The notes: generated by a model from the sequence alone, not told the origin. Shown: positions 7,048 through 41,325, counted from the first letter of the stretch. The stretch: 64,000 nt of DNA from a virus (IMGVR_UViG_3300027707_000013:6610-70609); one strand, 5' to 3'. Program-made: numbers and translations.

Positions 7048-7660
7048 GTTTTTGAATTATCTTTCTAATAACTTGAGATAGAGCCTGAGCCCCTATAACA
7101 ACAATTCCTGATGACACAAGTCTTTCAGCAATTAACAATCCAGCCTCTTTAGGGTCGACCGAACTTTCGGCAATGTTTTGAATATCTAAAATAATTGGGA
7201 TTAAAAATGCATAAGCCACAATATCCATAAAACTACCAACACTAACATTTAGTGAGAATAGGAAACCTTTGAATGATGACTTCAACTCTTTTCCTTTGTC
7301 TAAAGTTTTTTTAAAAACTTCTTCAAGACCCTCTTCTTTAATTTTTTTTAAAACATCAACTATCCCCTTCTTATTATCAAAAAATAGTATGAAGGCAATT
7401 CCCGCCAAAACGAGATATCTTTGGTTATCGGATAAATTAAACTCACCTGACTTAATGAATTGGTCTAACGGCATTACTAATCCACCAACAGCGGTACCCC
7501 ACGTTAATAACATTTTTAGGTTAAGATTATAAACTTTACCAGCTCGGTTTACAAGATTTTTGGTGAAAGAATACATGGTTTTCATGTACCCGTTCATTCT
7601 TGATTCATCCTGCTCCTGTAAAATTGTTCTCAGTTGAGATTCGTTAATTAAAAAATCCAT
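7040..7660 (-). CDS. hypothetical, probable head-targeted protein with hydrophobic helices
   Basis: MDFLINESQLRTILQEQ N-terminus; three hydrophobic segments. Confidence 0.55.
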   Translation of the reverse strand: MDFLINESQLRTILQEQDESRMNGYMKTMYSFTKNLVNRAGKVYNLNLKMLLTWGTAVGGLVMPLDQFIKSGEFNLSDNQRYLVLAGIAFILFFDNKKGIVDVLKKIKEEGLEEVFKKTLDKGKELKSSFKGFLFSLNVSVGSFMDIVAYAFLIPIILDIQNIAESSVDPKEAGLLIAERLVSSGIVVIGAQALSQVIRKIIQKLK

Positions 7661-28518: not shown

Positions 28519-29007
28519 CTAATAAACAAATGATTTTTGATAATCATTCCAAACCTTTTGAAGGTTTGCGTTATCATTAATCAATGTTGGTACATAAGGT
28601 TTTTGTTTCATAAACATCTTCGCCTCATCAGGTGTTCTATTTCCTTTCCTTAAGTTACATTTAAAACAAGACGTTACAAGGTTAGTCCATTCATTACCTC
28701 CACCTCTTGATTTAGGGGTAACGTGGTCTAACGTCAAATCTTTTTTTGACCCGCAATAAACACATTCGTGATTATCTCTCTTATATATTCTTGTCCTGTT
28801 CGCCCTTAACTTTCTAACCTGATATTTTATGTACTTTAATAATCGGATGATAACTGGGCGTACGTAGACATTGTATCCTGCAACAATAGGATTCTCGTCT
28901 GATTTTATAACTTCAGCCTTCCCTTTGTCCACCAATACAAAACCTCTCCTAACACTTGTTACATTAAGAGGGGTATAGTCGTAATTTAATACTAATACCG
29001 TACTCAT
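28519..29007 (-). CDS. HNH endonuclease
   Basis: RDNHECVYCG..TLDHVTPKSRGG..NLVTSCFKCNLRKG. Confidence 0.9.
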   Translation of the reverse strand: MSTVLVLNYDYTPLNVTSVRRGFVLVDKGKAEVIKSDENPIVAGYNVYVRPVIIRLLKYIKYQVRKLRANRTRIYKRDNHECVYCGSKKDLTLDHVTPKSRGGGNEWTNLVTSCFKCNLRKGNRTPDEAKMFMKQKPYVPTLINDNANLQKVWNDYQKSFVY

Positions 29008-29096
29008 TTTAATCCAATTTTTACAAACATAGTTTAATTAATTAATAAAAACAAAAAAGGGGACGAACTTCGACCCCTTTCTAATATACTAATGAT

Positions 29097-29201
29097 TTAG
29101 CAATATTTTATGGTTCGAGGTTTTCCACATCTCAAAGCTCCCGAGTTCTCATATTTTTGGTTAATTCCCAAAAGACACGTAATAAATTTGTCTATCATCA
29201 T
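29097..29201 (-). CDS. 34-aa small ORF followed by a terminator (possible leader peptide)
   Basis: MMIDKFITCLLGINQKYENSGALRCGKPRTIKYC; TATTTAT upstream; hairpin plus T-run at 29054-29080. Confidence 0.35.
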   Translation of the reverse strand: MMIDKFITCLLGINQKYENSGALRCGKPRTIKYC

Positions 29202-29277
29202 AATAATAAATATCTGTAAAAAGTTTCCAAAATCAAATTATTTCCATATCTTTGTTAAGAATTAAAAATATAAAAAA

Positions 29278-30051
29278 ATGACTATGAAACTAAAACAATT
29301 ATTTATTGCGATTTTCGCAACATCGGTATTATTCGTATCTTGTAGTAAAGATGACGTGTATGAACCAGTTAAACAAACTTCAATTGAATCAACTCAGGGA
29401 CAAGACCTAAGAACAATGTCTACATCACCGACTGTTTCAACGGTTGAACCAAAGGCTTACATTTTTGTTGAAAGTAGAATTAACAAAAGTCCAAGAAAAG
29501 TTGTGGATTATTTAAAAACAACTCAAAGACATTCACAATCAACAGGAACAAGATTTCTTTCTTTTTTTGTGAATGGTATTACAAGTTCTAATTTTAATGA
29601 TTTAATTAATTATTATAATATACCTTTTTGGAAAACTGACGCATCTTTAAAGGTTATCGAAACCGAAGTACCACAAGTAACTGGAGATGTGGATTCTTAT
29701 AATAACCCAAAATTAGCCTATAATTTTACAACTGTTAAAATACCTAAAGGTACGTTCAACGATTGGGGATGGGTTACGGTACTTATACCAACGTCAGCGA
29801 TGAATAATGACACAAAAAGACAAAATCAAATTGGTTATTATGCTAAAAACGGAAACAGAATAACCTCAAGCGGTAATAATACTCAAACAATTATTAACAC
29901 TAATAGACAACTATCGTCTTACGTAATCAATTATACAGGAAATGTAATCCCACAAGGTCAATATCGAGTATACACTACTCATGGCGGATTTGGAATGATG
30001 ATTGGTTTTAACTCAACAAATGACGTTTATTTTAGGGGAGCGTCTAATTAA
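29278..30051 (+). CDS. Bacteroidota-type lipoprotein
   Basis: VLFVSC lipobox; TATCTTTG upstream. Confidence 0.65.
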   Translation: MTMKLKQLFIAIFATSVLFVSCSKDDVYEPVKQTSIESTQGQDLRTMSTSPTVSTVEPKAYIFVESRINKSPRKVVDYLKTTQRHSQSTGTRFLSFFVNGITSSNFNDLINYYNIPFWKTDASLKVIETEVPQVTGDVDSYNNPKLAYNFTTVKIPKGTFNDWGWVTVLIPTSAMNNDTKRQNQIGYYAKNGNRITSSGNNTQTIINTNRQLSSYVINYTGNVIPQGQYRVYTTHGGFGMMIGFNSTNDVYFRGASN

Positions 30052-30107
30052 TTGAGATTTATTTAGAATTTATTTGATTTATAATATATTTATTGTAATA
30101 TTGCACT

Positions 30108-30206
30108 ATGAAAACTATGAACACAAATACAAATTTAGACACACCGACAACTCCTAATGGGGATGCAGGCACTATTTGCGTAAGTTCAGAAGCGAGTGGT
30201 TGGTAA
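30108..30206 (+). CDS. leader peptide 1 of tRNA cluster 1 (T/N/D/P/G/A-rich)
   Basis: MKTMNTNTNLDTPTTPNGDAGTICVSSEASGW*; 18 of codons 3-22 are T, N, D, P, G or A. Confidence 0.8.
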   Translation: MKTMNTNTNLDTPTTPNGDAGTICVSSEASGW

Positions 30207-30227
30207 CAATATTATAGCCAATTATCT

Positions 30228-30258
30228 AAACCCTGAACTAATACTTCAGGGTTTTTTT
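30228..30258 (+). terminator. attenuator terminator 1
   Basis: AAACCCTGAA-CTAATAC-TTCAGGGTTT plus T-run, 5 nt before tRNA-Pro. Confidence 0.85.
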
Positions 30259-30263
30259 ATGTA

Positions 30264-30337
30264 CGGGATGTAGCGTAGTCAGGTATCGCGCCACGTTTGG
30301 GACGTGGAGGCCGTTGGTTCGAATCCAGCTATCCCGA
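30264..30337 (+). tRNA. trnP: tRNA-Pro(TGG)
   Basis: Cloverleaf; anticodon arm CCACG-TTTGGGA-CGTGG. Confidence 0.95.
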
Positions 30338-30377
30338 CAAAAGTTTTCCTTATGGAAAAGTTTGATTATTATTATAT

Positions 30378-30449
30378 TGCTCTATCGTATAAGGGTTATT
30401 ACGGTTGACTGTTAATCAATTTATCCAAGTTCGAATCTTGGTGGAGCAG
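30378..30449 (+). tRNA. trnN: tRNA-Asn(GTT)
   Basis: GTTGA-CTGTTAA-TCAAT; T-loop TTCGAAT. Confidence 0.9.
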
Positions 30450-30529
30450 CTGTGGTGGGTGGAAAAATTCCAATGTTGTAGTATCGTGGATGGAGAAATC
30501 CTGAAGCATAAACAGACAAAAAGAAAGAA

Positions 30530-31018
30530 ATGATGTTAAAAACATTCTTATTGACTGGATTGTTATTGTTAGGAACAATAACAACAAAAGCACAAGAGAA
30601 GCAAGTACAGATTGATTCAAATACTAAAGAGAGTATTACAAAAGAAAATTTGTATGAGCAGATAATGAAGTACGGGATTAAGTTCCCTGATGTGGTATTC
30701 GCACAAGCGGTATTAGAGTCAGGTCAATTTACCTCCAAGTTGTTCAAATCGGCAAACAACTTATTTGGTATGAAAATACCAACAAAAAGGGAGTCATCGG
30801 CAAATGGTAAAACCAAAAGTGGATACTCAAGTTATGAAGATTGGAACTTTAGTGTATACGATTACTCTTTATGGCAAAATTTTATGTTAAGAAACAAAAG
30901 TGATTTAACAAAAAAAGAGTACCTTGCACTCCTTGGTAAGGTTTATGCAGAAGACAAAAGATATGTTAGTAGTTTAAAACGAGTAATCGGTGAACACCAA
31001 CATATTTTAACACAGTAA
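30530..31018 (+). CDS. glucosaminidase/FlgJ-like muramidase with signal peptide
   Basis: AQAVLESG, NNLFGMK, YAEDKRY. Confidence 0.85.
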   Translation: MMLKTFLLTGLLLLGTITTKAQEKQVQIDSNTKESITKENLYEQIMKYGIKFPDVVFAQAVLESGQFTSKLFKSANNLFGMKIPTKRESSANGKTKSGYSSYEDWNFSVYDYSLWQNFMLRNKSDLTKKEYLALLGKVYAEDKRYVSSLKRVIGEHQHILTQ

Positions 31019-31047
31019 AAAGTTTGGGGTGAAACTCCCCATAATTT

Positions 31048-31120
31048 GGTCCCGTGGTTGAATGGTTACAATTCCACCCTGTCACGGTGCGAGATACGGG
31101 TTCGAATCCCGTCGGGACCG
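31048..31120 (+). tRNA. trnD: tRNA-Asp(GTC)
   Basis: GGTCCCG/CGGGACC acceptor; loop CTGTCAC. Confidence 0.95.
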
Positions 31121-31177
31121 CAAAGAGGGTTATATGTGTAGTAACCTCAGGTGTGATATCCGCCACTACACTCTTAA

Positions 31178-31253
31178 GCGGTAGTAGCTCAGTTGGTAGA
31201 GCTCGTTCCTTCCAAGTACGAGGTCGCAGGTTCGAACCCTGTCTACCGCTCCA
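31178..31253 (+). tRNA. trnG: tRNA-Gly(TCC), CCA encoded
   Basis: Loop CTTCCAA; GCGGTAG/CTACCGC acceptor. Confidence 0.95.
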
Positions 31254-31300
31254 AGGGTTGTGGGAACCCAAGAGTATGTGATGAGCATACACCCACAAAT

Positions 31301-31376
31301 GCTTCCATAGCTCAGTTGGTAGAGCAGCTGATTTGTAATCAGCAGGTCGTTGGTTCGAGCCCGACTGGAAGCTCCA
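31301..31376 (+). tRNA. trnT: tRNA-Thr(TGT), CCA encoded
   Basis: GCTGA-TTTGTAA-TCAGC. Confidence 0.95.
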
Positions 31377-31381
31377 CTTTA

Positions 31382-31453
31382 GGGGATTTAGCTGAGTTGG
31401 TTTAGCACCGCCCTTGCACGGCGGGGACAAGAGTTCGAGTCTCTTATTCTCCA
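31382..31453 (+). tRNA. trnA: tRNA-Ala(TGC)
   Basis: G3.U70 pair; CCGCC-CTTGCAC-GGCGG. Confidence 0.95.
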
Positions 31454-31467
31454 CAAACAAATAAACG

Positions 31468-31821
31468 ATGGCACATCCAAACTTACATGCAAAATCATCC
31501 GCCAAAAAGTTTGGTGGGAAACCTGAGGACTACATTCATTTACACGAATGGTTAGATGAAACCAAAGGATGGTTTGGAGATTCACTTCATAGAATGTTTA
31601 GACATCATAGTGAAGGAATCTTTGAAATGGAAAAACGATTTGGTACTGAATTCAAAAACAGTGACGGGGATACCGTTTACACAAGATATATTGGAGAACA
31701 ACATATAAAAGAGGATTGTAATAACTACATTCCGTCAGCCAAAGAGTGGGTAAATAACATATCTACAAATCAACGACCTCAGTGGATGTTAAAAACAATA
31801 AAATTAGAATTCACTGACTGA
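31468..31821 (+). CDS. DUF6915-like protein
   Basis: MAHP..HAKSSAKKFGG.PEDY..HRMFRHHSEG..EQHIKED. Confidence 0.7.
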   Translation: MAHPNLHAKSSAKKFGGKPEDYIHLHEWLDETKGWFGDSLHRMFRHHSEGIFEMEKRFGTEFKNSDGDTVYTRYIGEQHIKEDCNNYIPSAKEWVNNISTNQRPQWMLKTIKLEFTD

Positions 31822-31832
31822 TATTTATAAGT

Positions 31833-32546
31833 ATGAAAGAACTTTTAACACCAGAAGAAAAACAATACTTAAAAAGAGTATCCAATTACTTAGGTTCAAT
31901 GGGGATGCAAGATGGTAATGTTGAAATTGACATAGATAATGGATGGACATTTAGTTATGATGATATCGATTGGAATTATATTACCCATTTCACTAATAAC
32001 TATAATGCGGATATTCCATCAGGATTAATACCAATACTTCAAAAAATAATGAAATATTGTGATGATGAGGGGTTAATTAAAGAACATGATGATAATATAA
32101 ATTATCAGAGATTAGAATATGATATTGATGTTGATGCTAAAAAAATTCAATTAAGTCATTGGTGGTCTTTTTATGATAGAGGTGAAGGTAGTTCAAGAGA
32201 ATATGATTCAGAAGAGGATATTGAAAGGTTTGATAGTTGGATGGAACTGTATTTTTCCGATGTCGAAATTCCCAATGATGGTGTCCTAACTGTAACCTAT
32301 AATGGGTCAGGTGATTCAGGTTATATGGAGAGTTCGTTTGAAGAAAATAATGACCAAGTTCCTGCAGGAATTGAGGATTGGTGTTACGGAGAATTATCAA
32401 GAAATTATGGTGGATGGGAAATTAATGAAGGGTCCGATGGTAACTTTATATTTGACTTCAACACAAAAATAGTTACATTAAATCATACAGAGAACATTGA
32501 AGAAAACGCAAGCGATACTTATTTTGAGCAGAGCTTCGCAAATTAA
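31833..32546 (+). CDS. DUF6878-like protein
   Basis: YNGSGDSG and GGWEINEGSDG motifs. Confidence 0.6.
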   Translation: MKELLTPEEKQYLKRVSNYLGSMGMQDGNVEIDIDNGWTFSYDDIDWNYITHFTNNYNADIPSGLIPILQKIMKYCDDEGLIKEHDDNINYQRLEYDIDVDAKKIQLSHWWSFYDRGEGSSREYDSEEDIERFDSWMELYFSDVEIPNDGVLTVTYNGSGDSGYMESSFEENNDQVPAGIEDWCYGELSRNYGGWEINEGSDGNFIFDFNTKIVTLNHTENIEENASDTYFEQSFAN

Positions 32547-32562
32547 GACATATTTATAAAAC

Positions 32563-32631
32563 ATGAGAACAACATTATTACATACGTTATTACTTGATAG
32601 ACAAGGTCTATTAAGAAGACTTATGCCGTAA
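32563..32631 (+). CDS. leader peptide 2 of tRNA cluster 2 (Leu/Arg-rich)
   Basis: MRTTLLHTLLLDRQGLLRRLMP*; 5 TTA, 2 CTT, 1 CTA and 4 AGA codons. Confidence 0.8.
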   Translation: MRTTLLHTLLLDRQGLLRRLMP

Positions 32632-32663
32632 TTTGTTCAGAGCCGTTCTATTTATAGATATTC

Positions 32664-32695
32664 AACCCTGAACCAAAAAAGTTCGGGGTTTTTTT
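32664..32695 (+). terminator. attenuator terminator 2
   Basis: AACCCTGAAC-CAAAAAA-GTTCGGGGTT plus T-run. Confidence 0.85.
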
Positions 32696-32735
32696 ATGAC
32701 TTTTTCAGAGATATTCACTATCTTTGTAAAATAAC

Positions 32736-32820
32736 GCCGAGGTGGTGTAATGGTAGCCACGAGGGACTTAAAATCCCTTGGTCAGTAACGACCGTGAGGG
32801 TTCGAGTCCCTCCCTCGGTA
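32736..32820 (+). tRNA. trnL: tRNA-Leu(TAA)
   Basis: AGGGA-CTTAAAA-TCCCT; long variable arm. Confidence 0.95.
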
Positions 32821-32827
32821 CAAAATT

Positions 32828-32901
32828 GGTTTGGTAGCTCAGCTGGATAGAGCAACGCACTTCTAATGCGTAGGTCATAGGTTCGAATCCTATCCGAATC
32901 A
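32828..32901 (+). tRNA. trnR: tRNA-Arg(TCT)
   Basis: ACGCA-CTTCTAA-TGCGT. Confidence 0.95.
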
Positions 32902-32903
32902 CA

Positions 32904-32997
32904 ATCATTATCGTAGCTCAGTGAGATACGGCGCAAGATACACACTTAAACAACGCGGGAGAGGCGCCTTTCCCGATGTGGCTGAAGCGATAATGAT
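32904..32997 (+). ncRNA. unassigned structured RNA between tRNAs
   Basis: 10-bp closing stem ATCATTATCG/CGATAATGAT with internal CGGGAGAG/CTTTCCCG hairpin. Confidence 0.45.
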
Positions 32998-33001
32998 ATT
33001 T

Positions 33002-33082
33002 ACCCCGATGGCGTAATGGTAGCCGCGCAAGTCTTAGGAACTTGTGACTTCGGTCGTATCGGTTCGAGTCCGATTTGGGGTA
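33002..33082 (+). tRNA. trnL: tRNA-Leu(TAG)
   Basis: CAAGT-CTTAGGA-ACTTG; long variable arm. Confidence 0.95.
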
Positions 33083-33096
33083 CAAGAAAGTAAATT

Positions 33097-33816
33097 ATGT
33101 ACGTACAAAATCCTTTAGTTAAAACTAGTCAACCGAATTTATTTCATTTGGCTCCAATTCCCGTATTCATGAAAGTTTTCGGTGACGATGAATTCCATGA
33201 TGAGGTATACACGTTTGGGTTTGAGAATCTAACTCCCCAACAAAAGTTAATGGGTCAGGAACTTCCTGAACAATACGACATTAACAGACAATCAAATTAT
33301 TCTGTGAATTACGATAAGAGAGAAATGTGGGTGGAACCTACAGAGTATAATCCTATTGGTAGTCGTTTTTGGACACCGCCTAACGACTTTCTTGACATCA
33401 ACAATGAGAACGTTAAGAAGATTAGACAAAGGGTTGAGAGTGGTTATATGGAGTTATTAGACATGTTAGGGTTCCAACACAATAGAAAACCTGATATTAC
33501 CGAGAGCTGGATTCAATATTATAACCCAACTGAAGGTAGAGGTCATAATGCTCACAATCACTGTAGATGGCAACCAAATGAAGAAACAATGTTAAACTTC
33601 TCAGGAGGTTATTACTTATCTGACGGTGACCCTATTGCCGACCATCCTTATAGTGGAGTTTTTACATTCCATATTAGAGGGATGTCTCACTTTATCAGAC
33701 CTAAAAAAGGTATGTTAATCATTTGGCCGTATGATATCGTACATTCGGTTAAACCATTTTACGGAAAAACACATAGATGTGTTATTAATTTCAATATTCA
33801 AGACGGAAAAAAATGA
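33097..33816 (+). CDS. 2OG-Fe(II) oxygenase-like protein (TIGR02466-like)
   Basis: ESWIQYY, HNAHNH, FSGGYYL, KGMLIIWP..HSVKP, RCVINFN. Confidence 0.75.
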   Translation: MYVQNPLVKTSQPNLFHLAPIPVFMKVFGDDEFHDEVYTFGFENLTPQQKLMGQELPEQYDINRQSNYSVNYDKREMWVEPTEYNPIGSRFWTPPNDFLDINNENVKKIRQRVESGYMELLDMLGFQHNRKPDITESWIQYYNPTEGRGHNAHNHCRWQPNEETMLNFSGGYYLSDGDPIADHPYSGVFTFHIRGMSHFIRPKKGMLIIWPYDIVHSVKPFYGKTHRCVINFNIQDGKK

Positions 33817-33867
33817 TTATCTATATTATATATATAATAAATAATATGTTTAAATTAACAAGTAAAG

Positions 33868-34455
33868 ATGCTATATAAAACTTTTGTTATTTCATTAAAA
33901 AGAAGACCCGATAGAAGAGCAAAAATTAAAGATTTGTTTATAAAAAACAATCTAAAGTTTTCTTTTTATGACGCAATTGATGGACGTGATTTAATTGTTA
34001 CGGATGAGATTGAAGAATTATTTTTAAATAATGAGTTTGAAGATTGGGGTATAATAAAAGAATGTATCTATGGTAATACCTTAACTCATCTAAAGCTATT
34101 GAAAGAATGTTCTGAGCAGAATTTACCGTATTTTATTTTTGAGGATGATGTTAAAATAAAGAAAGATATTAATTTCACGTTTGAGAGTATTGTTGAAAAA
34201 CAATTAGATGCTTTTTGGTTAATAGATTTAGAACCTTCGTCGTTAGCATACGTTGTTTGGCCTGAAGGGGCTAAAAAAATACATGATTGGATAATGAATG
34301 TTGGAAAGGCAGATAAAGGAATGGATTGGAAATTATTAGAAATAAAAAACACTAATCTCCTAAATTCTGATAAGATATGGGACGAATACTTCTATCAAGT
34401 ACCTGGAGAAGATTCCGATATTGCCCCTAAAGGATATAAAAAAATAATAATATGA
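33868..34455 (+). CDS. glycosyltransferase family 25
   Basis: VISLKRRPDRR, FYDAIDG, THLKLL, IFEDDV. Confidence 0.85.
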   Translation: MLYKTFVISLKRRPDRRAKIKDLFIKNNLKFSFYDAIDGRDLIVTDEIEELFLNNEFEDWGIIKECIYGNTLTHLKLLKECSEQNLPYFIFEDDVKIKKDINFTFESIVEKQLDAFWLIDLEPSSLAYVVWPEGAKKIHDWIMNVGKADKGMDWKLLEIKNTNLLNSDKIWDEYFYQVPGEDSDIAPKGYKKIII

Positions 34456-35030
34456 AACAAATAGATTTAGATATTTTTGTATTTCCAAAAATCATGACTG
34501 ATGAACTTATTGAAAGACTAATGTCGGTTAGAAATAAGAGCGGTTTTGATGGAAGATTAGATTTACATATTGAGGATAAAAACACATTTTATATTTTTGA
34601 TAATTTTTGGTTTTCTGAAATTGAATCCAAATATTTGGGACATTATTTTAGTACGTATGATGTTGAAAAAGGAATAGGATTAAATTCAAGTGAGGAGACT
34701 ATAAAACAATTAAGTAAATTTGTTGAAACAAAATGGAGAGATTTATTCTTACTTCATTATACACCTAATAGTTTAATTAACGGTGAAAAAGATATTCATT
34801 GGGATTTTAGTGGGTTAAGTATGGTTGGATGTTTAACTGATGATTATGAAGGAGGTAAACTAATTTTTCCTAGACAGAATGTTACTTACAGATTAGAAAA
34901 AGGGGATGTTATCGTGTTTCCAGGAGGTTTAACTCACCCACACTATGTGGAACCCGTAACTAAAGGTTTTAGGGATGTAATTGTTGGTCAAAGTATGACA
35001 TTACCTCAAGACCATAAAATCGATTATTAA
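34452..35030 (+). CDS. 2OG-Fe(II) oxygenase (lysyl/prolyl hydroxylase-like)
   Basis: IHWD, DYEGGKL, FPG..THPH.VEPVTKG.R. Confidence 0.8.
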   Translation: MKQIDLDIFVFPKIMTDELIERLMSVRNKSGFDGRLDLHIEDKNTFYIFDNFWFSEIESKYLGHYFSTYDVEKGIGLNSSEETIKQLSKFVETKWRDLFLLHYTPNSLINGEKDIHWDFSGLSMVGCLTDDYEGGKLIFPRQNVTYRLEKGDVIVFPGGLTHPHYVEPVTKGFRDVIVGQSMTLPQDHKIDY

Positions 35031-35036
35031 AAATAA

Positions 35037-35067
35037 TTTGACAACTCAGAGATTTTTACTATCTTTG
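35037..35067 (+). promoter_or_regulatory. Bacteroidota-type promoter of leader 3
   Basis: TTTG-N19-TATCTTTG. Confidence 0.7.
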
Positions 35068-35085
35068 AACTATATATTAGAAATA

Positions 35086-35187
35086 ATGAAAACTACAATA
35101 AAACATATGGTCTTTAGTACACAGCAAAAATCGATTTGTTGGTATGAGCGTATGCGCGATTGTAGTTCGGATATAATTTTTGAGTAA
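35086..35187 (+). CDS. leader peptide 3 of tRNA cluster 3
   Basis: MKTTIKHMVFSTQQKSICWYERMRDCSSDIIFE*; contains all 13 amino acids of cluster 3 and no L, P, G, A or N. Confidence 0.8.
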   Translation: MKTTIKHMVFSTQQKSICWYERMRDCSSDIIFE

Positions 35188-35222
35188 TTTTTTAAAATAA
35201 AAATAAACCAAATTTTTTATAT

Positions 35223-35255
35223 ACCCCGAACTCGTAAAAAGGTTCGGGGTTTTTT
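35223..35255 (+). terminator. attenuator terminator 3
   Basis: ACCCCGAACT-CGTAAAAA-GGTTCGGGGT plus T-run. Confidence 0.85.
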
Positions 35256-35271
35256 GTTTTAAAATTGTTAG

Positions 35272-35283
35272 GTTCTTTGAAAT
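35272..35283 (+). promoter_or_regulatory. boxA-like antitermination element
   Basis: GTTCTTTGAAAT; the same TTCTTTGAAAT lies just upstream of the tmRNA. Confidence 0.5.
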
Positions 35284-35313
35284 ATTGGTTGTAATTTTGT
35301 ACTTGATTTAAAC

Positions 35314-35387
35314 GTCGCGTTGGACAAATTGGTTAAGTCGTCATCCTTTCACGATGAAGATTACGGGTTCGAACCCCGTACGCGATA
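35314..35387 (+). tRNA. trnE: tRNA-Glu(TTC)
   Basis: TCATC-CTTTCAC-GATGA. Confidence 0.95.
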
Positions 35388-35397
35388 CATAATTTAC

Positions 35398-35469
35398 AGT
35401 TCCTTAGCTCAGTGGAAGAGTCCTTGCCTTACATGCAAGTAGTCGTAGGTTCGAATCCTACAGGAACTA
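35398..35469 (+). tRNA. trnV: tRNA-Val(TAC)
   Basis: CTTGC-CTTACAT-GCAAG. Confidence 0.95.
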
Positions 35470-35474
35470 CATTA

Positions 35475-35547
35475 GGTGACGTAGCTCAGTTGGTAGAGCA
35501 CTTGCCTGAAGAGCAAGGTGTCGTCAGTTCGATTCTGACCGTTACCA
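35475..35547 (+). tRNA. trnF: tRNA-Phe(GAA)
   Basis: CTTGC-CTGAAGA-GCAAG. Confidence 0.95.
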
Positions 35548-35622
35548 CGGAGTCCCGAATTAACGGGAAACCCCCACTCCCATATGGCAGCCAGTCCGTT
35601 AACCTGGTGAAGTGGGGTATTT

Positions 35623-35696
35623 GACCTCTTAGCTCAGTTGGCTAGAGCACTTCACTTTTAATGAAGGAGTCCCGAGTTCGAGTCTCGGAGGGGTCA
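35623..35696 (+). tRNA. trnK: tRNA-Lys(TTT)
   Basis: CTTCA-CTTTTAA-TGAAG. Confidence 0.95.
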
Positions 35697-35711
35697 CAAA
35701 AAACATATATT

Positions 35712-35945
35712 ATGAAAGCAATACTTGAATTTAATTTACCTGAAGATAATCAGGAGTTTGAATTGGCAACAAAGGGTCTTAAATTTTGGTCGGTCTTATG
35801 GGAATTAGACCAATCTTTAAGGACTAAAACAAAATATGCTCCCGACAATTTACCTCAAGATAAGTACGACGCTTATCAAGAAATAAGGGATGAACTTCGT
35901 GAGTTAATGTCGGATAATAATGTTAATTTTGACATGGTTAAATAA
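35712..35945 (+). CDS. conserved-looking phage hypothetical protein
   Basis: MKAILEFNLPED; start moved out of tRNA-Lys. Confidence 0.65.
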   Translation: MKAILEFNLPEDNQEFELATKGLKFWSVLWELDQSLRTKTKYAPDNLPQDKYDAYQEIRDELRELMSDNNVNFDMVK

Positions 35946-35956
35946 AAAACAATAAG

Positions 35957-36580
35957 ATGATAGATAACATAAACATAATAAAACCGTTATTAAACTTCGA
36001 GGAGAAGGGAGACTTCTATATGTTGTATGTCTTCAAACGTAAGAAAGACCAACCTGAAGGTGAGAGAGATAACCATCAGTCGGTTAGAACTATCAAAACA
36101 TATTGCATTGAATCAATTGACCATTTGGAAAGGAGATATGATGAGGTAAAACAACTATGTGAGATGTTCAAGGCAAGAGCTTACATTCATGTTCAGAAAC
36201 AAAATCACAGAGATGTGTCTTTGGATATGTTGGCGAGTTTAGCTGAGAGAATTAAGAATGGAGTTCAAAACCAAAAGGGGTTATTTGATTCGGTTGTTGG
36301 ACAGATTAAGACTCAAGAGAAAAGATGGATTATCGATATTGATAACGTATCAATGGATGGATTCAATCATGACCCATACCAAGTATCGTTGAGAGAATAT
36401 ATAAACGAGTTACAGAAAGAGGCAGGAAAAGACCAAGGAATGACTTTTATTAAGACAAGAAGTGGATTCCATATCATAACTCAACCTTTTAATGTGATGA
36501 AATTTAAAGAAAGATATCCCGAGGTTGATATCCAAAAAAAGAACCCAACATTATTATATTATCCCAATAATTTGGGTTAA
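35957..36580 (+). CDS. hypothetical protein, possible AEP/primase-like fold
   Basis: WIIDID..TRSGFH resembles the DxD and SGxH motifs; the fold assignment is weak. Confidence 0.55.
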   Translation: MIDNINIIKPLLNFEEKGDFYMLYVFKRKKDQPEGERDNHQSVRTIKTYCIESIDHLERRYDEVKQLCEMFKARAYIHVQKQNHRDVSLDMLASLAERIKNGVQNQKGLFDSVVGQIKTQEKRWIIDIDNVSMDGFNHDPYQVSLREYINELQKEAGKDQGMTFIKTRSGFHIITQPFNVMKFKERYPEVDIQKKNPTLLYYPNNLG

Positions 36581-36595
36581 ATTTGTAAAACAAAG

Positions 36596-36667
36596 GGTCG
36601 GTTGGCCGAGTGGTTTAGGCGGTAGTCTGCAAAACTATCTACACAGGTTCGATTCCTGTACCGACCT
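36596..36667 (+). tRNA. trnC: tRNA-Cys(GCA)
   Basis: GTAGT-CTGCAAA-ACTAT. Confidence 0.95.
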
Positions 36668-36668
36668 C

Positions 36669-36788
36669 ATGACAAAGAAAGAAATTAACAAAATGGTTAA
36701 AGCCATTAGAATGACAACAAAAAAAGCTTGTAAGAATAAGAAATCTGCTCGTAAGTTTCTTATTAAGGCGGGAATTGTAAAAAAATAA
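36669..36788 (+). CDS. 39-aa Lys-rich peptide
   Basis: MTKKEINKMVKAIRMTTKKACKNKKSARKFLIKAGIVKK*, filling the Cys-Trp spacer. Confidence 0.5.
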   Translation: MTKKEINKMVKAIRMTTKKACKNKKSARKFLIKAGIVKK

Positions 36789-36789
36789 T

Positions 36790-36862
36790 ACGTGTGTAGC
36801 TCAGACGGTAGAGCAGTAGTCTCCAAAACTATGTGTCAGAGGTTCGAATCCTTTCATGCGTG
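36790..36862 (+). tRNA. trnW: tRNA-Trp(CCA)
   Basis: GTAGT-CTCCAAA-ACTAT. Confidence 0.93.
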
Positions 36863-36865
36863 CTA

Positions 36866-37127
36866 AAGGTTGATTGGAAAGCCTTACACCTTCTCTAAGG
36901 AGTTGGAATGTAAGCGAGGGGACTGAATGAAGTCGAAGAAATGCCAATCATAAAAGTAGATGTCCACGCACCCATCTTCTACTTTCCTTAAAATATTAGG
37001 TTGATTGGGGAATGATGATGTAAATACCTGGTAGTGGTTGGAATAAGACATCGTCGGAGTTTAAATTACCATTAGTAATGCCAATCATAAAAGGAGATGT
37101 CCACTGAACCATCTTCTCCTTTCCTTA
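36866..37127 (+). ncRNA. two tandem copies of an unassigned structured RNA motif
   Basis: Both copies read AGGTTGATTGG..GTTGGAAT..ATGCCAATCATAAAAG(T/G)AGATGTCCAC..CCATCTTCT(A/C)CTTTCCTT, with a compensatory T-A/G-C change. Confidence 0.65.
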
Positions 37128-37131
37128 TTTT

Positions 37132-37213
37132 GGGAGTATCGCATAGCGGCAATTGCAGAAGACTGTAAATCTTCCCTCTTTAGAGTTCGTAGGTTCGAGT
37201 CCTACTCCTCCCA
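37132..37213 (+). tRNA. trnY: tRNA-Tyr(GTA)
   Basis: GAAGA-CTGTAAA-TCTTC; long variable arm. Confidence 0.95.
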
Positions 37214-37219
37214 CATTTT

Positions 37220-37293
37220 GGACTTGTAGCTCAGTTGGTTAGAGCGCTTCACTCATAATGAATAGGTCCCTGGTTCGAGCCCAGGCTGGTCCA
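37220..37293 (+). tRNA. tRNA with CAT anticodon (probably Ile2, possibly Met)
   Basis: Loop CTCATAA; C4-G69 pair as in Ile2 tRNAs. Confidence 0.85.
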
Positions 37294-37299
37294 CAATAT

Positions 37300-37370
37300 T
37301 GCCCGATGGTGTAGCGGTAGCACAAATGTTTTTGGTGCATTTAGGGTTGGTTCGAATCCAGCTCGGGTAA
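37300..37370 (+). tRNA. trnQ: tRNA-Gln(TTG)
   Basis: AATGT-TTTTGGT-GCATT; TGCCCGA/TCGGGTA acceptor. Confidence 0.92.
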
Positions 37371-37379
37371 CTAAATAAA

Positions 37380-37451
37380 ATGAATATGTGGTTTTTAATT
37401 GTTTGGATTGTATTGATGATTATTGTCAAATGGGACAATGACCGTGATTAG
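37380..37451 (+). CDS. 23-aa hydrophobic peptide
   Basis: MNMWFLIVWIVLMIIVKWDNDRD*. Confidence 0.35.
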   Translation: MNMWFLIVWIVLMIIVKWDNDRD

Positions 37452-37523
37452 GGTTTTATGGTGTAACGGATAGCACACGAAACTACGGATTTCGGAGTTT
37501 AGGTTCGAATCCTAATAGAACCT
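37452..37523 (+). tRNA. trnR: tRNA-Arg(ACG)
   Basis: CGAAA-CTACGGA-TTTCG. Confidence 0.92.
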
Positions 37524-37529
37524 CTAAAC

Positions 37530-37599
37530 TGCGTGGCTTAGAGGAAAAGAACTATCTCTCATAAGGATGGTCAATTGGGTTCGAAACCCAAACACGCAA
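37530..37599 (+). tRNA. atypical tRNA with CAT anticodon (Met-like), weak D-arm
   Basis: TGCGTG/CACGCA acceptor, loop CTCATAA, T-arm TTGGG-TTCGAAA-CCCAA. Confidence 0.6.
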
Positions 37600-37604
37600 C
37601 ATAT

Positions 37605-37678
37605 GGTGGCTATAGCTCAGTTGGCAGAGCGCTTGGTTGTGGTCCAAGTTGTCACGGGTTCGATTCCCGTTAGTCACC
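37605..37678 (+). tRNA. trnH: tRNA-His(GTG)
   Basis: G-1 and C73; CTTGG-TTGTGGT-CCAAG. Confidence 0.95.
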
Positions 37679-37812
37679 CAAAGTGTTTACAACGGACAAG
37701 GCTTAGGCAAGTGAGTTGAGAATGAGTAGTAGGAGATTTAATCGTTTGGACTACAGAAAGTTTGATACAATAGATTGGTGGGATGCGAGTGGTTGACCAA
37801 AACACTTATTAC

Positions 37813-37898
37813 GGAAGGATGGCAGAGTTGGTCTATCGCGCTTGACTTGAAATCAAGTGTACTGCAAGGTACCGTGGGTTCGAATCCTACTCCTTCCG
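37813..37898 (+). tRNA. trnS: tRNA-Ser(TGA)
   Basis: CTTGA-CTTGAAA-TCAAG; long variable arm. Confidence 0.95.
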
Positions 37899-37930
37899 CA
37901 ATTTTTTACCCATATTGACTATTTATTAGT

Positions 37931-38380
37931 ATGGAAAAAGTAACATTAACAAAAGAGCAACTATTCAAGGTAATGCATTTGAATGAGCAGGAAAATAAGC
38001 CTGAAACTAAAAGTAACTCAGGATTTAAGAATATGGTGTCAACACTATTACATTCTCAAACTCAAGTACATATTTTTCATTTACAGACTAAGTCATATTC
38101 TGAACATAAAGCATTACAAAAGTACTATGAAGGTATTGACGCATTAGTGGACGGTATTATCGAAAGTTATCAAGGTAAGTACGATGTTATTAAAAATTAT
38201 GATTCAGTTAAAACTGAGGACTACAAGAGTTCTGAGCAAGTAATTAATTATTTCAAATCATTAGATACTATGATTGAGAAAGCAAGAAAAGGAGTTAAAG
38301 AATCGTATATTCAAAACCAAATTGATACGGTTCAGGAATTAATATTTTCCACAGTGTATAAGTTAAGATTCTTAAAATAA
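37931..38380 (+). CDS. ferritin/Dps-like protein (DUF5856-like) with head-type propeptide
   Basis: QVHIFHLQTKSYSEHKALQKYYEGI..D.IIESYQG; TATTTAT at 37920. Confidence 0.7.
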   Translation: MEKVTLTKEQLFKVMHLNEQENKPETKSNSGFKNMVSTLLHSQTQVHIFHLQTKSYSEHKALQKYYEGIDALVDGIIESYQGKYDVIKNYDSVKTEDYKSSEQVINYFKSLDTMIEKARKGVKESYIQNQIDTVQELIFSTVYKLRFLK

Positions 38381-38474
38381 TATACTGTTGAAATCTAATA
38401 TTGAATTCCTCTAATTAAAAGTTAGGGGAATTTTTTTTTATGGTATGATTTTAATATATTTGTACCAACAACAA

Positions 38475-38548
38475 TGGAATATAACTCAGTTGGTTAGAGT
38501 GTCATCCTGATACGGTGAAAGTCGATGGTTCGAGTCCATCTATTCCAA
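38475..38548 (+). tRNA. trnI: tRNA-Ile(GAT)
   Basis: TCATC-CTGATAC-GGTGA. Confidence 0.93.
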
Positions 38549-38550
38549 CA

Positions 38551-38886
38551 ATGGAAAATGAAATTAAAAAGAAAACTGGCAATAGAGCCAAGTTTAAGAA
38601 AATTGTAAAAGAGTATAAAGAAGCGACCAATAAAGAGATTTGGGAAGGAGTTAGAGATAATTTTACTTTCGGGTTTATTGGAGCGACTATTGTTGTGTTT
38701 ATAGCGACAAGAGCTGATATTGCGGTATTATTAGGTTATTTAGCTTATTACTTTTTTGTAGGTAAGATAGTTAATCGACCAAAATACGTAACCGATTTGG
38801 GAAAATTAATTGTGTTTCCAGTACCATCAGCATTAGGTGCATTTATAGGATATAAATTATCCTATTACCTTTTACAGTTATTGTAA
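38551..38886 (+). CDS. membrane protein
   Basis: Three hydrophobic segments; start moved out of tRNA-Ile. Confidence 0.6.
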   Translation: MENEIKKKTGNRAKFKKIVKEYKEATNKEIWEGVRDNFTFGFIGATIVVFIATRADIAVLLGYLAYYFFVGKIVNRPKYVTDLGKLIVFPVPSALGAFIGYKLSYYLLQLL

Positions 38887-38892
38887 TGTTTT

Positions 38893-38978
38893 GGAAAGTT
38901 ACCCAAGTTGGTGAAGGGGCTTGTTTGCTAAACAAGTAGGGTGTAAAAGCCGCGAGGGTTCGAGCCCCTCACTTTCCG
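38893..38978 (+). tRNA. trnS: tRNA-Ser(GCT)
   Basis: CTTGT-TTGCTAA-ACAAG; long variable arm. Confidence 0.95.
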
Positions 38979-39066
38979 CAGAAAAAAAATATTTGAAAAG
39001 TTGACATAATCGATTAACCTTCTTATATTTATAATCTATTAATAAATAAAACAAATAAAAAAAAAC

Positions 39067-39252
39067 ATGAAAAAAGTAGTATTAGCAATCTTTACAATCG
39101 TAGCGTTAGCCTCTTGTGGTAACGGAAAATCAACTGAAGTTAAATCTGACTCAACTGTAGTAGCGGTAGATTCAGTTAAAGTAGATTCAGCAGCAGTGGC
39201 TGTAGATTCTGTAAAAGCTGAAGCGCCTGCGTCAGTAGAAGAAAAAAAATAA
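39067..39252 (+). CDS. small lipoprotein with D(S/T)(A/V/T) repeats
   Basis: IVALASC lipobox; own TTGACA-N17-TATATT promoter and terminator. Confidence 0.75.
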   Translation: MKKVVLAIFTIVALASCGNGKSTEVKSDSTVVAVDSVKVDSAAVAVDSVKAEAPASVEEKK

Positions 39253-39297
39253 TTACATTCTATTGGAAAAACAAAACCCACCTATTGGTGGGTTTTT

Positions 39298-41325
39298 TTA
39301 TTTTAATAATCTTTTAATTTTTTCAATGTTTTCGGTAACTTTCTTTCTTCCAAGTGGGTCCTTGATAAAATTTAATATCCATGGGTCTACTTCTCTTTCG
39401 TCAGCAACTCCTCCCCATCTTTTCTGAGTCATTTCTCCTGTTTTCTCATCGTATTTATTTCCGAATACTTTATCAATTGCCTTTGCAGGTAAAGAAGATA
39501 CCATTGATGTGATATTGTCTATAGGTGTTCTATCACTATCAAAGACAGATGACCTACCCGATTGATTTTTCTTATTGTCTTTACCCGATGAACTATCTTT
39601 TTTAGGAGAATCTGTTTTAATACCGCCCGAACCAATCGGTACTGTATTCCATGAACCGTCTAACATTGTAACTTCAACATCAGAATCAGTTTTACCTATA
39701 ACATCTCCAACTGAAATTGATTGACCATCTCTGACCATAGGAGAACTTATACCACAAAATTGTAGGTAGAATTTTTTATTATCCTCATTCTTGATTGTAA
39801 TTTGGTTTGTACATGATGAAGAATATCTTTTGTTAAAAACAACACCTGATATCGGGCTTTTAATTTTTGGATTAGTGTCTTTAGGAATTATAATTCTACC
39901 GTATCTGTTACTAACGTCTCTACCAAAACTTTTTTGTTCTCCAAGTTGGGTATTTTCTGTTTTAAGAAATTTACTTGCAATCGATTTACCCATCTGTACT
40001 AAATAATCGTCTTTAGCGACATTAGGAGCATCAAATACTGAACCTGATTTTGCTGATTGAACCCCTGTTGCAGCATTATATGCCGTTTCACTCGAATTTG
40101 AATCTACTGTAGGAGCAGTTCCTGACTCTCCTGAGTTATTCGATACGTGTAAATGGTTGAAGTGGTTACCACCTGTATTTGTTTGCCACAGGACCGCTTT
40201 ACTATTACCTGACTCAGTGTTTAGTGTATAACCCATAGAAACCAAGGCGTTGGCTAGTTTGGTTCCAAGAGACCTAAACTCCGCATTACCGTTGGACGCA
40301 TTGGTTGCACCTCCTGCACCAACACCATTTAAGATTGCAATATCAACAGCGGTTTGTTGACCATGTCTACTTGTATTACCTGTCTTAGTTTTTATAGAAT
40401 GACCTGTACTTGCAGTGGTAATTGTTGTAGTAATACCCGCAGCTTTTGATGCGGCATCAAGGTCATCTAATAACGGTTTATTAACCGAATCAAATTGAGT
40501 TCCATCACTATCGTATTTAAGATTACTATAACTTGTGTCATTGAGTTGAACCAACTCTAATTCACTTAAGATATTCTTATTGTTAGTTAGAATATCTTCA
40601 TATATTGATAATATCTGTTCATCAACATTTTCTGTTTTAAGAAATTTACTTGCAATTGATTTACCCATTTGTACTAAATAATCGTCTTTATCGACATTAG
40701 GTGCATCAAATACTGAATCTGATTTTGCGGTTACAGCCCCCGAAGTACTTGTAGCAGCATTATACGCTGTTTCACTACTATTTCCTGTCACGGTAGTTCC
40801 TGAAATTGATTGTCCGTTAGCACATTTTAAAGTCCCGTTGTCATTTAAGAATTGTCTTACATTACCTGATTCAACTCCAATATGTAAGTGGTCGTAATCA
40901 CTACCTGGAAAGTCCATAACATAACCCAAAAGTTGACCACACGTAACTTTATCACCTTGTTTTACCGTCACATCTTTCAAGTGAGTATAATACACGTCTG
41001 GAAGACCATCATCACTATCAACAGTAAATCCTGCCCCAAATAAAGTTTTCCCATCTTTTTTTATTGGTGTCGGGCCATAATCAGTATATGTTTTAAGAGT
41101 TCCTCCTATAACTGCATATACAGGTGTACCTATTGTGGCTTTGATATCCCAAGCATTATTACTTTGCCATCCTGATTGACCCCCATGGGCTCCATCCGAA
41201 GGGATTGATACATTACTTCCACCAAATAACTCACTACTTGCGTTAGAAACCTCATTAATTGATTTGGTCTTTAAAATAGACTCATACAATGATAAGATAT
41301 CTAATATTTCTTTTTCTTTGGACAT
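39298..41325 (-). CDS. multidomain peptidoglycan hydrolase (M23, M15-like, degenerate M23)
   Basis: WDIKA..GTPVYA..YTHL..HLHIG; SRHGQQTAVD..HFNHLHVS; duplicated linker. Confidence 0.75.
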   Translation of the reverse strand: MSKEKEILDILSLYESILKTKSINEVSNASSELFGGSNVSIPSDGAHGGQSGWQSNNAWDIKATIGTPVYAVIGGTLKTYTDYGPTPIKKDGKTLFGAGFTVDSDDGLPDVYYTHLKDVTVKQGDKVTCGQLLGYVMDFPGSDYDHLHIGVESGNVRQFLNDNGTLKCANGQSISGTTVTGNSSETAYNAATSTSGAVTAKSDSVFDAPNVDKDDYLVQMGKSIASKFLKTENVDEQILSIYEDILTNNKNILSELELVQLNDTSYSNLKYDSDGTQFDSVNKPLLDDLDAASKAAGITTTITTASTGHSIKTKTGNTSRHGQQTAVDIAILNGVGAGGATNASNGNAEFRSLGTKLANALVSMGYTLNTESGNSKAVLWQTNTGGNHFNHLHVSNNSGESGTAPTVDSNSSETAYNAATGVQSAKSGSVFDAPNVAKDDYLVQMGKSIASKFLKTENTQLGEQKSFGRDVSNRYGRIIIPKDTNPKIKSPISGVVFNKRYSSSCTNQITIKNEDNKKFYLQFCGISSPMVRDGQSISVGDVIGKTDSDVEVTMLDGSWNTVPIGSGGIKTDSPKKDSSSGKDNKKNQSGRSSVFDSDRTPIDNITSMVSSLPAKAIDKVFGNKYDEKTGEMTQKRWGGVADEREVDPWILNFIKDPLGRKKVTENIEKIKRLLK
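39952..40717. repeat. 91-bp direct repeat (39952-40042 and 40627-40717)
   Basis: Four mismatches; encodes SVFDAPNV.KDDYLVQMGKSIASKFLKTEN. Confidence 0.85.

Follow-up and report, generated by a model that had tools for sequence, protein, structure and literature searches.

Candidate leader-peptide attenuators before three tRNA gene blocks of a freshwater phage

It is still a matter of debate why phages have tRNA genes and by what means these are controlled. The 64,000-nucleotide (nt) stretch IMGVR_UViG_3300027707_000013:6610-70609, which as a whole we call the window, raises this question in a specific form: tRNA genes follow each of three terminator hairpins, and before each hairpin lies a short open reading frame (ORF). 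What are these terminators doing in front of tRNA genes, and what are the small ORFs doing in front of the terminators? In our opinion, to which we attach a probability of about 0.7, each of the three units is a transcription attenuator of the ribosome-mediated (leader-peptide) kind, set before a phage tRNA block, and the word GTTCRG that they share is the core of their segment 2; the opinion is drawn from comparison of sequences.

A first-pass annotation of this DNA had claimed that each leader carries, near its stop codon, a word complementary to the 5' arm of its terminator, and all six segments were confirmed by a sequence check (Table 1). Segment 3, the partner of the word, consists in each leader of the loop-proximal half of the 5' arm of the terminator together with the first base of the loop, and in each terminator a T run comes after a stem of 10 base pairs (bp), of which 4-6 are G-C. 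When the 67 nt upstream of each terminator were shuffled and complements at least as long as the observed one were counted, P was 0.026 for terminator 1 (T1), 0.063 for terminator 2 (T2) and 0.004 for terminator 3 (T3). Taken alone, the window is no more than suggestive, since its three units are paralogues. Related contigs (numbered with the prefix L) were retrieved from IMG/VR and from metagenome contigs with the neighbouring 239-amino-acid protein and with the leader peptides, and gave 44 distinct leader-1, 12 leader-3 and 5 leader-2 units, about 60 in all. A control terminator at 38403-38433, after the DUF5856 gene, was examined as well; it has a 7-nt upstream complement (AGGAATT/AATTCCT, at 38333-38339) that we rejected as chance (P = 0.11), and the match is broken in L011 and L018.

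Is the pairing kept in these relatives? The six core pairs form in every leader-bearing unit of the collection except the decaying copy in L022/L045. We tested covariation on 27 distinct units, taken from all three leader types, over a helix of 8 pairs: 89% of cells are paired (89-91% over the comparisons as a whole), compared with 17-49% when the partner is slid, and covariation scores 0.245, where shuffles gave 0.131 +/- 0.021 (0/500), figures that relatedness can inflate, although the changes nonetheless fall in several separate lineages, with wobble intermediates (L148 and L153 for leader 1, L038 for leader 3). Compensatory changes are found at three or four positions of the helix. In 32 distinct leader-1 units the pair made by the first base of the word and the last of the arm is G-C in 23, A-U in 7 and G.U in 2, and it is open in none. 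The A-to-G change in the word of leader 3, matched by T-to-C in its terminator, had been put forward as compensatory; it does recur inside the leader-3 family, where this fifth pair of the word is mostly G-C, with G.U in L038 and A-U in L082, and it is A-U in leaders 1 and 2. The helix also extends outward into bases of the terminator loop (AGTTCAG/CTGAACT, AGGTTCAG/CTGAACCT, ATGTTCAG/CTGAACAT, GTGTTCAG/CTGAACAC, AGATTCAG/CTGAATCT and GTAAGTTCAG/CTGAACTTAT), and these bases covary with a codon (NGT) whose amino acid varies. Since the terminator does not constrain its loop bases, covariation there is specific to the antiterminator.

The word lies in a constant reading frame, xRT-TCR-GAx. Its serine codon is TCA in 44/44 leader-1 units and TCG in 11/12 leader-3 units, TCG being 8% of the serine codons in the long ORFs of the phage. 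The codon before serine in leader 1 is NGT or GAT, so that the last two bases are kept while S, R, G, C or D is encoded. Judged from such patterns in the sequences, selection acts on the RNA and not only on the peptide. In the decaying leader 3 (L022:6766-6930, L045:4252-4332) the word has been lost via a small indel, the ORF is shortened and 5 bp to the arm remain; this lineage has also lost the tRNA-Val, tRNA-Phe and tRNA-Lys genes behind that leader. We read it as a copy in decay and do not count it against the pairing.

An upstream segment 1, which the first-pass annotation had missed, pairs with the word region, and because it does so the layout of alternative pairings (1:2, 2:3 and 3:4) is complete. 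Many leader-1 relatives have, in the same register, an unbroken 1:2 helix of 11-12 bp. Nucleotide 15 and the first word base are C-G in 16 leader-1 relatives, U.G in 6 and U-A in 7. There is thus a three-way covariation, in which the first base of the word changes together with its partners in segments 1 and 3. The 1:2 helix of leader 3 is paired in 85% of cells versus 20-45% when slid, and shows little variation. Between word and arm of leader 1 there is, in addition, a hairpin with the stop codon at the edge of its loop; among leader-1 relatives 72% of its cells are paired and double changes occur at 5 pairs. The effect of this hairpin would be to place segment 2 close to segment 3, until a ribosome terminating at the stop codon melted it. 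Its 3' arm, GCCAA (30217-30221), 5-10 nt before terminator 1, is nearly invariant in leader-1 units.

The geometry of classical attenuation that had been claimed for the three leaders is supported, with some corrections. The pairing of word and arm is, as far as alignments can tell, a conserved and covarying helix that is mutually exclusive with the terminator and lies inside a short ORF whose frame is preserved, and it is because of this combination that we regard the anatomy as that of leader-peptide attenuation. The mechanism would be as follows. Before the 3' arm of the terminator exists, segment 2 would pair with the loop-side half of the 5' arm and with one or two loop bases (2:3); this antiterminator would remove the site at which the terminator nucleates, and polymerase would read into the tRNA genes. 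Otherwise segment 1, in the first leader codons, would hold segment 2 (1:2). A ribosome stalled on the control codons would cover segment 1 and free segment 2, with read-through as the result, while a ribosome at the stop codon would sit on or against segment 2 and melt the hairpin between segments 2 and 3, so that the terminator would form. The control codons would be those read by the tRNAs behind each terminator, and shortage of a block's tRNAs would lead to more transcription of that block. That the leaders are translated we infer, and likewise the direction and the size of the response.

How does the nascent RNA fold under this scheme? Folding was done on RNA ending before the terminator 3' arm, with the early codons or the stop region masked to mimic a ribosome. 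The probability of the antiterminator in leader 2 is 0.04 with no ribosome and 0.75 with the early codons masked; in leader 3 the corresponding values are 0.26 and 0.92-0.98, and in leader 1 they are 0.99 and 0.99. With a ribosome at the stop codon it is 0 in all three. In leaders 2 and 3 the antiterminator is thus predicted only with the early codons masked; in leader 1 it is already at 0.99 unmasked.

It had further been claimed that a ribosome reaching the stop codon would cover the word in each case. For leader 2 this stands: the word starts 3 nt past the stop and occupies nt 4-9 beyond it, within the footprint of a ribosome at the stop. For leaders 1 and 3 it is not literally true, as with a ribosome terminating there the word ends at about -12 relative to the P site, which is the trailing edge of the footprint. 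In these two leaders blocking at the stop would be steric and would be joined by melting of the word/arm hairpin. The distance from the end of the word to the stop codon is 14 nt in 41/44 leader-1 and 10/12 leader-3 units, despite the fact that the tail peptides encoded after the word differ (SEASGW, SDIIFE, SDTDVG and others). The tails SSDIIFE and SDTDVG occur in leader 1 of some phages and in leader 3 of others (L098:3001-3099, L102:3001-3096, L011:7465-7566, window 35164-35187). The module of word, tail and terminator appears to move between leaders by recombination.

The content of the ORFs is evidence of a different kind. By cognate control codons we mean here those read by the encoded tRNAs. 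In leader 1, 20/31 residues fall within {P, N, D, G, T, A}, the six amino acids served by the tRNAs of block 1 (p = 5e-4); in leader 2, 12/21 belong to {L, R} (p = 7e-7); in leader 3, 27/32 belong to its 13-residue set (p = 1e-3), and all 12 non-Met members of that set are present (p = 0.003), so that no amino acid of the block 3 tRNAs is missing from the ORF. Enrichment is restricted to the amino acids of each leader's own block, with none off this diagonal. Even the arginine codons are split accordingly, AGA in leader 2, before tRNA-Arg(tct), versus CGT and CGC in leader 3, before tRNA-Arg(acg). The peptides of leader 1 keep their composition while the order of residues varies, and their conserved core, TPNGDAG in most and PTNDGTG in L018/L019, is a permutation of the six amino acids. 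The match also follows gene content among relatives: L018 has no leader 2, and its leader 1 carries 5 Leu and 1 Arg, while in L038 and L082, where the genes for tRNA-Lys and tRNA-Arg(acg) are missing, Lys and CGN codons are missing from the leaders as well. The ORFs are retained in about 60 distinct relatives (leader 1 in 44), their start codons are conserved, and indels in them come in multiples of 3 without exception. What we observe directly is the anatomy, the covariation, the conservation of frame and the match of codons.

Table 1. Positions of the three units and of the features around them, numbered from the first letter of the window
Feature	Position	Strand	Remarks
Leader 1 ORF	30108..30206	+	32 codons and stop; codons 3-22 nearly all Thr, Asn, Pro, Asp, Gly, Ala
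Leader 1 segment 1	30118..30122	+	TGAAC pairs with GTTCA of the word, 5 bp
Leader 1 segment 2 (word)	30183..30189	+	AGTTCAG, codons AGT TCA GA-
Leader 1 word/arm hairpin	30195..30227	+	AGTGGTTGGT ... GCCAATTA.CT; stop codon 30204-30206 at loop edge; RNAfold, RNAalifold
Terminator 1	30228..30258 (hairpin 30228-30254)	+	10-bp stem, 7-nt loop, T run; -11.2 kcal/mol; segment 3 CTGAACT 30233-30239
tRNA block 1	30264..31454	+	Pro(tgg), Asn(gtt), glucosaminidase gene, then Asp, Gly, Thr, Ala
Leader 2 ORF	32563..32631	+	22 codons; 8 Leu, 4 Arg, all Arg AGA
Leader 2 segment 1	32567..32578	+	GAACAA.ATTAT pairs with 32628-32638, 11 bp (RNAfold)
Leader 2 segment 2	32628..32640	+	spans stop codon; word GTTCAG at 32635-32640
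Terminator 2	32664..32697 (hairpin 32664-32690)	+	T run; -13.5 kcal/mol; segment 3 CTGAAC 32668-32673
-7 box (Bacteroidota-type)	32719..32726	+	TATCTTTG; 10 nt before tRNA-Leu; putative separate promoter for block 2
tRNA block 2	32736..33083	+	Leu(taa), Arg(tct), Leu(tag)
Promoter-like site for leader 3	35038..35067	+	TTG, 19 nt, then TATCTTTG; conserved in relatives
Leader 3 ORF	35086..35187	+	33 codons; Arg codons CGT and CGC
Leader 3 segment 1	35091..35099	+	AACTACAAT pairs with ATTGTAGTT at 35159-35167, 9 bp, overlapping the word
Leader 3 segment 2	35159..35170	+	word AGTTCGG at 35164-35170
Terminator 3	35223..35256 (hairpin 35223-35250)	+	T run; -16.8 kcal/mol; segment 3 CCGAACT 35226-35232
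-7-like box	35292..35299	+	TAATTTTG; 15 nt before tRNA-Glu; conserved in relatives
tRNA block 3	35314..37899	+	Glu, Val, Phe, Lys, Cys, Trp, Tyr, Met, Gln, Arg(acg), His, Ser(tga); ORFs interspersed

Several points weigh against attenuation, and they should be considered together. The antiterminator core is only 6-8 bp long, and in this phage the 1:2 helix of leader 1 has only 5 bp. The full-length RNA at equilibrium favours the terminator (P 0.7-0.8), and therefore any antitermination must be kinetic; a kinetic switch is plausible, because the antiterminator occupies the loop-side bases where closure of the hairpin would begin. Leaders 1 and 3 covary; leader 2 shows no variation of its own in word or arm, and we read its pairing by analogy with the other two. 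The match between leaders and tRNAs is imperfect: L082 keeps Val, Phe and Glu codons without having those tRNAs in its 5-kb locus. The excess of changes at third codon positions is weak, with variable sites at positions 1/2/3 numbering 14/11/19 and 11/12/14. Boxes of the type TAnnTTTG precede blocks 2 and 3, so those tRNAs would not depend on read-through, and such a box is found also after terminator 1 in L018, L038 and L102. Finally, leader 2 is absent from close relatives that have the same tRNAs (L014, L019, L038). It was found in close relatives only, its first 12 nt and the CAT at its codon 7 match an L018-type leader 3, and it looks like a recoded duplicate.

Could it be, then, that the terminators merely insulate tRNA promoters, that the small ORFs are independent mini-genes, and that the word/arm pairing serves, for example, the folding or stability of a short RNA, tRNA output being independent of the pairing? 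We consider this unlikely, while granting that some observations speak for it. Immediately behind T2, T3 and T4, and in several relatives behind T1 too, there are promoter-like boxes; TAnnTTTG boxes are found 5-10 nt upstream of the predicted starts of tRNA-Leu (32719), tRNA-Glu (35292), tRNA-Cys (36578) and tRNA-Ile (38455), and several tRNA sub-blocks seem to have promoters of their own. Leader 3, too, has its own canonical promoter, so that promoter, ORF and terminator make up a complete small unit, and relatives that lack leader 2 retain the tRNAs nevertheless. Yet insulation leaves unexplained why compensatory changes preserve a helix incompatible with the terminator, why the ORFs are written in the codons of the tRNAs behind them, and why a promoterless tRNA-Pro abuts terminator 1. 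That gene begins 5 nt past the T run, and because there is no room for a promoter before it, block 1 would be expressed by read-through only. As mini-genes the ORFs are odd as well: the leader peptides matched no protein family in PHROGs, and their residue order varies with composition kept. If the units are attenuators, read-through would add to constitutive transcription, except for block 1 of this phage.

Further observations concern the same intervals. A near-identical promoter-like block (TGAC..TCAGAGAT.TT.ACTATCTTTG) is present at 35038-35067, before leader 3, and at 32697-32726, after terminator 2 and directly before tRNA-Leu. One lineage (L005 at about 7560-7650; L061, L066) has an insert of about 85 nt, with no Rfam match, between the promoter-like box after terminator 3 and tRNA-Glu. 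Contigs from RNA libraries bridge terminator 3 in three runs (X15 34922-35306, X16 35112-35301, X18 34993-35284), and none spans leader 1 together with its terminator; these are contigs for which DNA carry-over is possible, and we counted them neither for nor against read-through.

A second answer would accept the helix switch and deny the ribosome its role: the trigger would be a protein, uncharged tRNA in the manner of a T-box, or the speed of polymerase, and the ORFs would be incidental. It is true that covariation proves RNA helices and not translation, and the weak third-position excess in the ORFs is in keeping with this answer; codon-position periodicity as proof of translation we rejected as too weak, and frame-preserving indels are more informative. 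But incidental ORFs would hardly conserve length, frame, start codon and the 14-nt spacing over about 60 units with unrelated tails, with all indels in multiples of 3, nor would their codon content mirror the tRNAs downstream. In searches with Rfam no family, the T-box included, was found on the leaders (30100-30262, 32560-32700 and 35080-35260) at E <= 1, and the T-box model had no match in the whole of 29000-39500 at E <= 1; weak Phe/Leu leader matches were obtained at 39233-39322 only, on another terminator and far below gathering scores. We therefore rate a non-ribosomal trigger somewhat lower still than insulation.

Least credible by far is that the complementarity is chance or a by-product of duplicating one terminator-containing module: the per-site P values from the window alone (0.004-0.06), the paralogy of the units and the 7-nt complement of the control terminator would all agree with it, but it is contradicted by compensatory and wobble-intermediate changes in many lineages, including positions in the terminator loop, and the complement of the control terminator is not conserved.

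If the three units are attenuators, what would they be for? One could speculate, at what we regard as even odds, that they form an autogenous, codon-resolved feedback. Each leader would inventory the tRNAs behind it, and the phage would sense a shortage, caused by mismatch with the host pool or by host defences that cleave tRNAs, and would transcribe exactly the block that is short. The word-tail-terminator module would be exchanged by recombination, and new leaders, such as leader 2, would arise by duplication and recoding.

The window belongs to a phage fragment of 70.6 kb in IMG/VR with an estimated completeness of about 23%, and the phage occurs in many freshwater metagenomes. It has 23 tRNA genes, all on the + strand, between 30264 and 38979, and among its neighbours are genes for a carbamoyltransferase, a glucosaminidase, 2OG-Fe(II) oxygenase-like proteins and a family-25 glycosyltransferase. 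The host probably belongs to the Bacteroidota, because of the TAnnTTTG boxes and because A-rich stretches without a Shine-Dalgarno-like purine run (judged by eye) precede the start codons. The consensus TAnnTTTG and its position are those described for the Bacteroidota-type -7 box (PMC9723704). A DNA search of cultured phage records gave matches at the level of tRNAs only. Of the more distant relatives of the neighbouring oxygenase gene, some are without tRNAs in the locus; others, such as L048, do have tRNAs, but no leader or terminator was obvious in the stretches read by eye (an ORF or terminator scan was not made). The attenuator system appears to be restricted to one clade.

The spacing of the array varies in relatives because HNH-like ORFs (with CxxCH...H motifs) are inserted between tRNA genes (L012:3628-4203, L019:8936-9355, L022:3136-3675). 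Between tRNA-Trp and tRNA-Tyr of the window are two tandem elements of about 133 nt, at 36864-36996 and 36997-37131, each closed by a helix TGATTGG...CCAATCA and bearing at its 3' side a hairpin with TTTCCTT after it. An ORF of 16 codons (MPIIK...) is conserved in L012, L014 and L022; the fold z-scores of the elements are not significant. They may represent an unknown small RNA or another terminator-like element. The pairing GGTTG..GCCAAT that closes the elements at 36864-37131 resembles the GCCAA arm of the leader-1 stop-codon hairpin.

If our reading is true, a leader that spells out the codons of the tRNAs behind it would let the attenuator sense decoding capacity directly. The setting, a virus of Bacteroidota, is of interest too, since regulation by RNA has received little study in that phylum. 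In literature searches, the coverage of which is incomplete, we found no published leader-peptide attenuation of tRNA genes or of phage tRNA clusters, and this would be the first case known to us of tRNA genes under classical attenuation. Thanks to the covarying antiterminator a few point mutants would suffice to test the idea, and the small modular units could serve as natural reporters of tRNA supply.

Which of the known systems do these units resemble? The enterobacterial attenuators trpL, hisL, pheL and leuL, and the multivalent thrL and ilvL, are leader-peptide attenuators of amino-acid operons. With them the units have in common a short ORF with control codons, alternative pairings 1:2, 2:3 and 3:4, an intrinsic terminator, and a structure that would be decided by the position of the ribosome; with thrL and ilvL in particular they share that one leader would monitor several amino acids. 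They differ in that the regulated genes are phage tRNA genes and not those of biosynthetic enzymes, and in that 2 to 13 amino acids would be monitored, mostly by one to four codons each and without long runs. Moreover, segment 2 of leaders 1 and 3 is located 14 nt before the stop and not after it, the expression signals are a TAnnTTTG promoter and no Shine-Dalgarno sequence, and there is no similarity, in sequence or to models, to the leader families of Rfam.

The pheST attenuator of E. coli, with its pheM leader, controls a tRNA synthetase and monitors a single amino acid. The likeness is that attenuation would act, here as there, on a component of the translation apparatus according to the supply of charged tRNA; the difference is that here phage tRNA genes and several amino acids take the place of a cellular synthetase and one amino acid. 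T-box riboswitches bind uncharged tRNA directly, without an ORF and by means of a conserved T-box sequence. In both systems the status of tRNA would select between terminator and antiterminator upstream of genes related to translation, but the phage units have a leader ORF and no T-box match. For Flavobacterium psychrophilum, of the same phylum as the likely host, attenuation by leader peptides has been inferred before amino-acid operons (PMC9723704), with the same promoter type and class of mechanism; there the regulated genes are host biosynthetic operons, and here they would be the tRNA genes of a phage.

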